31,543 nucleotides of DNA, from positions 1 to 31,543 of the forward strand of contig DATCWO010000076.1 of NCBI GenBank assembly GCA_036566325.1, read 5' to 3'. This DNA comes from Burkholderiales bacterium (GTDB lineage Bacteria; Pseudomonadota; Gammaproteobacteria; Burkholderiales; SG8-39). Below are positions 27,002 through 31,543 of the stretch, piece by piece. The position numbers were made by a program, and so were the translations under genes. A model generated the notes under the pieces. The model had not been told where the DNA came from. It worked only from the letters and a program-made list of their open reading frames with translations, and ran no database searches. The number at the start of each line of letters is the position of its first letter. Positions within the stretch are counted from its first letter, which is position 1.

Positions 27002-30679
<3,678 letters not shown>

Positions 30680-30696
30680 GGGGCCGGCGGAGGGTG

Positions 30697-30722
30697 AAAG
30701 CAAAAAGCCCGCGCTGGCGGGC
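30697..30722 (-). terminator. Intrinsic terminator in the metH 5' leader (attenuator)
   Basis: Minus strand GCCCGC-CAGC-GCGGGC followed by TTTTTGCTTT, ending 17 nt upstream of the metH ATG and in the same orientation as metH. Confidence 0.75.
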
Positions 30723-30831
30723 ATCGTTGACGCGTGCCCTGCTGTGATTTGACTTAAGCGAACACGCGACCCAAGGCTAAAGGGTTGATGCGTCAGTGTC
30801 AATTTAGGAGCCTTTGGGTTGAAGCCCTGCT
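30723..30831 (-). ncRNA. Candidate cis-regulatory RNA (riboswitch-like aptamer) upstream of metH, class unassigned
   Basis: Two adjacent stems (ACCCAAAGGCU/AGCCUUGGGU; CGCGUG/CACGCG) directly upstream of the terminator, with a competing antiterminator pairing. Confidence 0.45.
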
Positions 30832-30844
30832 ATTGAAATGGTTT

Positions 30845-30858
30845 TTGATCGTGATCAA
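30845..30858. promoter_or_regulatory. FNR/ANR-family binding site
   Basis: TTGAT-CGTG-ATCAA is a perfect match to TTGAT-N4-ATCAA. A -10-like CATACT at 30880-30885 gives class II (about -41.5) geometry toward ompW. Confidence 0.8.
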
Positions 30859-30927
30859 CCGGCTTCCCGGCGCCATAACCATACTTCTCACATGGAATTG
30901 TTCATGTCGTTGAGGTATGGAGATCGA

Positions 30928-31543
30928 ATGAAAAAGGCGGCATTGGGAATATGCGTATTGGCGGCGGCGCTAACGGTGGCAATGCCCGTTCAGGCCGAGG
31001 AAGAAGGGCCGTTCATGGTCCGTCTGCGTCTGGTGAATATGCAGGTCGATAACGGCAACAGCCCGAACGCGGCGGCGGGCGAGGTGGAGGTGGACGACAA
31101 GGTCTTCCCGGAAATCGACTTCTCGTATTTCTTCACTCCCAATCTGGCTGCGGAACTGGTGCTGACCTATCCGCTCAAGCACGATGTAAAACTGGGCGGC
31201 ACCGATATCGGTAGTATCAAACGCCTGCCGCCGAGCCTGCTGTTGCAGCATCACTTCACGCCGGGCGAGCGTTTTAAACCTTATGTTGGCGCGGGTCTTA
31301 ACTACACTCATTTTTCCAGCGTCGATCTGGATGTTCCCGGCGCCGATATCGATCGCCGTAGCTTCGGGGTTGCGTTGCAGGCGGGTGTCGATATTCGTCT
31401 GGCCAAGCACTGGTATCTCAACTTCGACGTGAAATATATCGACATCGATACCGATGTGAGCGTGAACGGAACAAAACTCACCACGCTGGAAGTGGATCCG
31501 ATGCTGTACAACATCGGCATCGGCTATCGTTTCCAGGCGCGCG
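30928..31543 (+). CDS. ompW: OmpW-family outer membrane beta-barrel protein (no stop codon within the window; absent from ORF track)
   Basis: Manual translation: MKKAALGICVLAAALTVAMPVQA signal, PEIDFSYFFTPNLAAELVLTYP, LPPSLLLQHHF, FKPYVGAGLNYT, QAGVDI, NFDVKYIDIDTDV, VDPMLYNIGIGYRF; RBS GAGG/GGAG upstream. Confidence 0.93.
   Translation, partial: MKKAALGICVLAAALTVAMPVQAEEEGPFMVRLRLVNMQVDNGNSPNAAAGEVEVDDKVFPEIDFSYFFTPNLAAELVLTYPLKHDVKLGGTDIGSIKRLPPSLLLQHHFTPGERFKPYVGAGLNYTHFSSVDLDVPGADIDRRSFGVALQAGVDIRLAKHWYLNFDVKYIDIDTDVSVNGTKLTTLEVDPMLYNIGIGYRFQAR

Follow-up and report, generated by a model that had tools for sequence, protein, structure and literature searches.

A conserved hairpin and terminator in the metH leader of a Burkholderiales clade whose relatives carry SAM-II riboswitches at that position

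What controls metH in an uncultured Burkholderiales lineage in which the leader of this gene is rich in potential RNA structure and resembles no described riboswitch? The leader lies near one end of a stretch of 31,543 nucleotides (the window: contig DATCWO010000076.1, positions 1 to 31,543) from a metagenome-assembled genome (MAG) that is 84% complete (G000). The gene downstream of it carries the MetH domains (5/5 Pfam matches). A sequence-only reading had proposed that the minus strand folds into a long imperfect hairpin (hairpin 1), an immediately stacked stem (stem 2) and an intrinsic terminator, with an antiterminator that competes with stem 2 and sequesters the 5′ arm of the terminator. 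Loop-loop contacts and a repeated octamer completed a picture that was taken for an OFF riboswitch, a variant or undescribed regulatory RNA of the Met/folate pathway.

Every one of these elements can be read directly from the minus strand. The arms of hairpin 1 are ACCCAAAGGC (30819-30810) and GCCTTGGGT (30777-30769); stem 2 pairs CGCGTG (30768-30763) with CACGCG (30736-30731); the terminator is GCCCGC-CAGC-GCGGGC (30722-30707) followed by a T-run to 30697; the antiterminator would join GGGCACG (30739-30733) to CGATGCCC (30726-30719); and the octamer AGCAGGGC occurs twice, at 30831-30824 and 30743-30736. The minimum free energy (MFE) structure predicted by RNAfold for 30680-30900 includes hairpin 1, stem 2 and the terminator. 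Taken as a whole, this 221-nt fold is ordinary when compared with shuffled sequences (z = -0.69). Stem 2 alone is non-random (z = -3.04, with 0 of 200 shuffles equal to it in stability), whereas for the outer stem of hairpin 1 the result is marginal: about 6% of shuffles match it.

Comparison with relatives leaves the interpretation as a riboswitch-like switch largely unsupported. The reading that we favour, at a probability of roughly 0.55, is a clade-specific leader terminator without an aptamer, at a site where relatives carry a SAM-II riboswitch. The result is mainly corrective: a putative promoter had been folded as if it were RNA, which made a simple leader look like an aptamer. The features on which the argument draws are collected in Table 1.

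Table 1. Features of the metH-ompW region, with positions numbered from the first letter of the window
Feature	Position	Strand	Remarks
metH, cobalamin-dependent methionine synthase, 1225 aa	27002-30679	-	ATG at 30679, conserved start
Pyrimidine-rich spacer, terminator T-run to ATG	30680-30696	-	about 65% identity; no Shine-Dalgarno sequence
Intrinsic terminator (predicted)	30697-30722	-	6-bp all-GC stem 30722-30717/30712-30707, loop CAGC, TTTTTGCTTT
Linker between hairpin and terminator, TCAACGAT	30723-30730	-	7-9 nt in 6/6 leaders, weakly conserved
5′-terminal leader hairpin (stem 2)	30731-30768	-	about 12 bp including G-U pairs; loop 13-26 nt by stem count
metH sigma-70 promoter block (predicted)	30773-30805	-	-35 TTGACA 30802-30797, 17-nt spacer, -10 TAGCCT 30779-30774
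Hairpin 1, 5′ arm	30810-30819	-	upstream of the -35 box
Palindrome TTGAT-N4-ATCAA, presumably FNR/CRP-type	30845-30858		direct reading; half-site variants in ompW-linked relatives
ompW-family outer-membrane protein gene, divergent	30928-31542	+	Pfam OmpW E = 3.6e-38; runs off the window end

metH was fetched from 30 genomes of the family, G000 included, of which the 25 outside genera g1 and g3 are loci L009-L033. The leader alignment comprised G000 and the two other species of genus g1 (G001 and G002) and later also G061 (a g3 genome), L037 (a metagenome contig) and L038 (a locus with a 98%-identical MetH). MAGs of neighbouring species are deposited as “Nitrosomonadales bacterium”, “Burkholderiales bacterium” or “uncultured proteobacterium”. 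When GTDB species genomes were scanned with the promoter block of Table 1, matches were found in G001, G002 and G061 only, and a pattern scan of metagenomes contributed one additional leader, L037. Of 317 family genomes, four have the hairpin-plus-terminator leader, namely G061 and each of the three species of g1; with two metagenome contigs added to genus g1 and the g3 genome, six distinct leaders of this type were available. Three of the six distinct sequences (G000, G002 and L038) are near-identical, so the set is too small for statistical covariation testing. Segment identities refer to four divergent representatives (G000, G001, G061 and L037). The metH start ATGCAACC is kept in all relatives.

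The promoter block and hairpin 1

The most conserved intergenic block in the alignment, AAATTGACA-N17-TAGCCTT (30805-30773), is not a stem. Its mean pairwise identity among the four representatives is 97%, compared with 57% for the 45 nt upstream and 57-65% for its flanks generally. The block has the hexamers and the 17-nt spacing of a sigma-70 promoter, and its near-constant distance to a transcribed element is clearest in relatives: an exact TTGACA-17-TAGCCT precedes the SAM-II aptamer in 14 metH leaders, and the P1 stem of the aptamer begins 8-9 nt past the -10 box. Since a riboswitch must be transcribed, TTGACA-17-TAGCCT in these relatives is its promoter, with a transcription start inside this interval of 8-9 nt. 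In the window both hexamers, the 17 nt between them and their placement with respect to metH are the same, and the transcription start is therefore predicted near 30767 (±2 nt). A consensus scan called no promoter here because the -10 box TAGCCT agrees with the consensus at only 3 of 6 positions. The block is single-copy in the genome, and its spacer sequence is invariant only in leaders of the hairpin-terminator type: genome G004 and locus L045 keep the hexamers and their spacing around a different spacer sequence.

Judged by this conservation, the core of hairpin 1 is the predicted metH promoter, that is, palindromic conserved DNA that had been folded as RNA. The -35 box and the spacer fall in the hairpin 1 loop, and the 3′ arm overlaps the -10 box. 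With a promoter at 30802-30774, the 5′ arm, the partners of the proposed loop-loop contacts and the upstream copy of AGCAGGGC should all lie outside the transcript; the 5′ arm is probably not transcribed with metH. The outer stem also fares poorly among relatives. The complementarity of the 5′ arm to 30777-30769 is broken in L038 and missing from G001 and G061, and the outer stem is not kept in these three; one compensatory exchange (C-G to G-C) distinguishes G000 from G002. As for the octamer repeat, both copies exist in the window, and the repeat is lost in G002. A pairing of GCAUC in the promoter spacer with GAUGC in the linker was considered as well and is not kept in L037.

RNA data bear on this region to a limited extent. 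The G001 locus is present in a bioreactor metatranscriptome (X23), and contigs of X23 and X24 were compared with it. A single contig runs from the coding sequence through the terminator and the hairpin as far as the -10 box, and the sequence farther upstream is on a second contig. The break between them coincides with a 32-nt block common to several strains, and neither the ends of an RNA nor its local depth can be read from assembled contigs, so that no evidence about the transcription start is drawn from it; the depths of the adjacent contigs (21.8 vs 3.7) are not usable either. The contigs show only that the leader-to-gene sequence is present in an RNA library. This gives a weak hint of read-through of the G001 leader into metH, with DNA carry-over possible. 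For the window itself, only 5% of the sampled words were present in RNA runs.

On the ompW side of the promoter block lies the perfect palindrome listed in Table 1, which we take to be an FNR-type site from the known consensus. It is kept, with half-site variants, in G002, L038, G001, G061 and L037. In the window it stands about 41 bp upstream of a candidate ompW -10 box (CATACT, 30880-30885 on the plus strand; the ompW ATG is at 30928), and its likeliest role is at the divergent ompW promoter, which in its arrangement looks like a class II FNR-type promoter. This would agree with the oxygen-regulated ompW of enterobacteria. The ompW neighbour has been lost in G004 (L008) and L045, and an ammonium transporter gene with its own terminator is now found upstream.

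The transcribed leader

The six leaders have a common plan: a hairpin, a linker of 7-9 nt and an invariant GCCCGC-N4-GCGGGC-T4/5, followed by a pyrimidine-rich spacer of 17-23 nt (17 nt in the window) that reaches the AUG without a Shine-Dalgarno sequence. The terminator was matched by a consensus scan and is present in the folds. Its 6-bp GC stem, 4-nt loop and U5GCU3 tract, placed between the predicted promoter and the start codon, are those of a predicted intrinsic terminator. The stem is invariant in 6/6 leaders, and the differences among them are confined to the loop. Mean pairwise identity among the four representatives is 91% in the terminator and 63% in the hairpin plus linker. Leader and terminator sequence are both single-copy in the genome. 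Here the sequence-only reading was right in part: by the six-leader alignment and the shuffle test, the metH leader bears a genuine, conserved intrinsic terminator behind a conserved hairpin.

The hairpin is stabler than shuffled sequences in 5 of the 6 leaders (z from -1.8 to -3.0); that of L037 is weak (z = -0.03). Its stems are unrelated in sequence: CGCGUG/CACGCG in the window, GCGCGCGU/ACGCGCGC in another leader, a U6/A5-containing stem in G061 and GGUCUC/GAGAC in L037. Since different stem sequences occupy the same place, the hairpin is, as far as six aligned leaders can tell, kept as a structure by covariation and not as a sequence. Its loop measures about 7 to 26 nt and varies in sequence as well, apart from a UCAYAGC-like motif that itself occurs in variants (UCAGAGC, UCACGC, UCAUAGC); a seventh leader variant, at a loose metagenome contig end, also has AUCACAG. 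A loop of such changeable size with only a short, varying motif in common is unlike a ligand pocket, which speaks against an aptamer in stem 2. The leaders of G004 and L045 have a short hairpin and no T-run. They keep the promoter but lack the T-run, so the leader evolves quickly.

A switch would need a second structure, and the folds offer little room for one. Whether the nascent or the full-length RNA is folded, the MFE structure of each leader is the hairpin plus the terminator. Folds constrained to pair the 5′ arm of the terminator upstream (a constraint that was only partly enforced) gave no competitive structure, the alternatives being 2-8 kcal/mol worse. No conserved antiterminator was found among the six leaders; the GGGCA/UGCCC pairing, on which the proposed switch depended, is restricted to the near-identical G000/G002/L038 trio. 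Conserved unpaired aptamer nucleotides, a conserved internal loop and a conserved junction were likewise looked for and not found in this small sample of six. What the upstream regions of relatives preserve of the original model is the position of the hairpin and the terminator, and neither the outer stem nor the antiterminator.

Further candidate elements within the leader were examined and set aside. A pseudoknot of the hairpin loop with the linker, the U-tract or the start region amounts to 3 bp (AUC/GAU) and fails in G001; one loop-to-linker position does co-vary, as AUC/GAU in G000 vs GUC/GAC in L037. Small open reading frames that might encode a leader peptide (GUG-UUC-GCU-UAA, and one that opens with the ATG at 30724) differ from leader to leader, both in frame and in whether they occur at all. 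An N-terminal extension of MetH from the same ATG would be in frame in G000 and L037, is out of frame in G002 and L038, and is absent in G001; the ATG at 30724 is not conserved and is thus not the metH start. In G000 this codon (30724-30722) adds 15 codons, and gene callers may mis-start metH there. The longest metH open reading frame listed for the window begins at a TTG at 30802.

SAM-II riboswitches in relatives

Does the leader belong to a known riboswitch class that has been overlooked? With Rfam 15, no family matches the leader when the whole window is searched at the gathering threshold. A search of 30600-31000 at E ≤ 10 returned four matches that score well under their cut-offs and are due to chance: poplar-1, a microRNA, a viral frameshift element and, on the terminator, a CRISPR repeat model. 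The covariance models for cobalamin, SAM-I, SAM-SAH, SAM-V, SAM-VI and THF riboswitches have no match in the metH leader. The earlier placement of the leader outside the known Rfam classes is borne out by these searches, and no literature on a metH-specific leader motif was found.

The site itself has a riboswitch in most relatives. Among the 25 metH leaders from outside g1 and g3, 19 contain the core strands of SAM-II followed by a terminator. The core strands are complete in the 17 full-length examples, and two leaders cut by a contig end show the 3′ strand. Two of the 19 pass the Rfam cut-off for SAM-II (RF00521). Upstream of metX, a complete SAM-II with a terminator is present in G001 (L054), G002 (L056), G061 (L055) and G004 (L057). 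It contains an inserted hairpin between P1 and the 3′ strand, which keeps it below the RF00521 cut-off: it scores 28.7 bits in G004, with no match in the others. The lack of an Rfam match is thus no proof that SAM-II is missing in this family. An RF00521 search of five genomes that returned nothing in g1 was accordingly a false negative, owing to the inserted hairpin of the metX SAM-II. In G000, the region upstream of metX ends at a contig end, and its SAM-II status is not visible there.

Because the Rfam model misses hairpin-inserted SAM-II, the core strands were checked directly in the metH leader. Of the strands that build the SAM-II pseudoknot and triplex, the metH leaders of G000, G002, G001, G061 and G004 contain neither L1 (CGAUUUGA) nor the loop strand (AGCUUGCGGGCG) nor the 3′ pseudoknot strand (GCUAAAGCG). 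A P1-like feature is present in the leader, in that a hairpin starts 5-7 nt past the -10 box and is followed by a terminator; this alone is insufficient for membership in SAM-II. Since metX keeps SAM-II in the clade, SAM-II has not been lost from the clade as a whole. Within the family, the metH loci amount to a natural case of riboswitch turnover, in which one promoter-metH junction is followed by three kinds of leader: SAM-II, a hairpin with an orphan terminator, and a short hairpin without a terminator.

Two groups of the more distant loci have peculiarities of their own. In L009 (G130), L013 (G113) and L022 (G026), a duplicated fragment of the metH 5′ end (ATGCAATCCGACCG...-like) lies between the SAM-II terminator and the real start, and it is followed by a short insertion with an inverted repeat, CAAGGGGGC...GCCCCCTTG, and ATCCCCC. 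It looks like a small MITE/REP-like element that went into the metH start in three genera. In L030 (G112), L031 (G015) and L033 (G093), no SAM-II precedes metH; a divergent regulator-like gene has its end or its start about 100 nt upstream, adjoined by a conserved AT-rich box (...TTTCATTGGATTCATAG...), and metH in these loci may be under MetR-type control.

The alternative methionine synthase gene, metE, is found in G000, G002, G061 and G004, and no cobalamin riboswitch precedes it at E ≤ 0.01 in the loci fetched. It was not found in G001, whose genome is 98% complete; consequently metH there must be expressed through the hairpin-terminator leader. A second metH-like gene is present in G001 (contigs C24 and C41), on C41, and is 64% identical over the N-terminal 200 aa.

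How the leader may work, and how it compares with known systems

Given the parts of the leader, the pattern of their conservation, the SAM-II riboswitches of relatives and the missing core motifs, the leader terminator without an aptamer could operate as follows. The metH promoter fires and the transcript would start at about 30767. The 5′ hairpin, folding first, would keep upstream RNA from interfering with the terminator; its probable roles are to insulate the terminator and to shield the mRNA at its 5′ end, and it probably binds no ligand. The terminator would then halt most transcripts at about 30700 by default, releasing a product of about 65-70 nt, and metH mRNA would consist of the transcripts that read through. 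We infer this default-off behaviour with read-through from the arrangement of the parts. Metabolic control would more likely be exerted at the invariant promoter block or its spacer, by a DNA-binding regulator, or through a trans-acting factor, than by binding of a ligand to the RNA. The leader is possibly a SAM-II remnant, or else it arose independently; the shared position, the shared promoter and a faint UCA..GC similarity are the basis for descent from SAM-II, and no detectable RNA homology stands behind that suggestion.

Several observations sit uneasily with this reading. A strong, unregulated terminator is an odd thing to find before metH; in G001, where no metE was found, metH would be the only methionine synthase. 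The weak -10 match counts against the promoter; the start position derives from homology, and the RNA contigs show no ends. The stem of the terminator is invariant beside a drifting hairpin and the promoter spacer is invariant too, which suggests constraint, perhaps by a regulator. The comparison also comprises just six distinct sequences, with three of them near-identical. An invariant orphan terminator with no visible antiterminator, together with an invariant promoter spacer, points to a further regulator.

Could that regulator act on the RNA itself? A trans-acting RNA-binding protein or small RNA might recognise the hairpin loop or the linker and block formation of the terminator. Such a factor would explain how metH is expressed behind a strong terminator that has no built-in competitor, as it must be where metE was not found, and the UCAYAGC-like motif and a GAU/GAC just before the terminator do persist while the hairpin drifts. 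There is, however, no candidate factor, the motif is 6-7 nt long, is not identical in all leaders and could be plain inheritance, and neither a second motif nor a second copy of the leader exists in the genome to indicate a regulon. We regard this explanation as rather unlikely.

A second possibility is a new, very small riboswitch in which the hairpin, linker and terminator together bind a methionine-cycle metabolite, the ligand shifting the equilibrium of the terminator. It would occupy the SAM-II site of relatives, its hairpin and terminator have been kept over about 37% sequence divergence, no Rfam class matches it, and one loop-to-linker position co-varies between G000 and L037. Against it, the 7-26 nt loop comes with no conserved internal loop, junction or alternative pairing, the possible pseudoknot is 3 bp long and fails in G001, and the L037 hairpin is barely stable, and such a riboswitch is unlikely. 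In its boldest form, the hairpin, linker and invariant terminator would be a minimal undescribed sensor, for a ligand or a dedicated antiterminator protein, that replaced SAM-II at metH. This, too, is a long shot. If it were true, metH would respond to something else, such as homocysteine, methyl-THF or B12 status, while this Burkholderiales clade of soil and groundwater goes on using SAM-II at metX and the SAH riboswitch at ahcY.

Just as unlikely is the proposal that the terminated leader is itself a small RNA of 65-70 nt that acts in trans. Its architecture is typical of a terminator-ended small RNA, its terminator is conserved beyond what mere damping needs, and there is a precedent in RZ (PMC9373788). 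The seed would have to be the loop, however, and no part of the leader is less conserved; the expression data cannot resolve such short species. The original two-hairpin aptamer with loop-loop contacts and a GGGCA/UGCCC antiterminator is scarcely credible: its pairings exist in G000, with one compensatory exchange in G002 and an outer stem borderline above chance in G000, G002 and L037, but the core of hairpin 1 appears to be promoter with its 5′ arm upstream of the -35 box, the outer stem is not kept in G001, G061 or L038 nor the octamer repeat in G002, and the antiterminator, absent outside the trio, could form only by opening a hairpin of about -15 kcal/mol.

The favoured leader terminator can be set beside four known systems. 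The first is the ompA-type 5′ hairpin of E. coli, a 5′-terminal stem-loop that stabilises mRNA. Like it, the metH leader hairpin is stable, lies only a few nucleotides from the predicted 5′ end and is conserved in structure and not in sequence; unlike it, the metH hairpin is directly followed by a terminator, and a stabilising function would be assigned to it by analogy. The second is the SAH riboswitch, which in Betaproteobacteria often controls ahcY, metF and metH and switches expression on through an LL-type pseudoknot. It acts on methionine-cycle genes from the leader, as the metH element would, and the clade has it: RF01057 matches directly upstream of ahcY in G000, G001, G004 and G061 (L060-L063) with 54-61 bits. 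The G000 copy (L061:2932-3017, contig C34, 57.1 bits) also serves as a positive control for the same library. The metH leader differs in having no RF01057 match and nothing comparable to the LL-type pseudoknot.

The third comparison is with leader terminators that derive from riboswitches and release small RNAs, such as RZ of Sinorhizobium meliloti, which is reported to be released by the SAM-II riboswitch of metZ (PMC9373788). RZ resembles the product expected from the metH leader in being a short transcript with a 5′ hairpin and a terminator before a methionine gene. The two differ in that RZ is formed by SAM-dependent termination through an intact aptamer (PMC9373788), whereas no aptamer is detectable here and a small RNA is only hypothetical.

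The closest comparison in position is with the SAM-II leaders (RF00521, SAM_alpha) of the relatives themselves. The metH leader of the clade differs from them in that the three core strands are missing and cmscan gives no match at E ≤ 10, in that the terminator sequence is unrelated, and in that the leader is about 40-100 nt shorter. It is like them in serving the same gene from the same promoter, in beginning with a hairpin at about +1, and in its intrinsic terminator, which stands 10-25 nt ahead of an ATG lacking a Shine-Dalgarno sequence.
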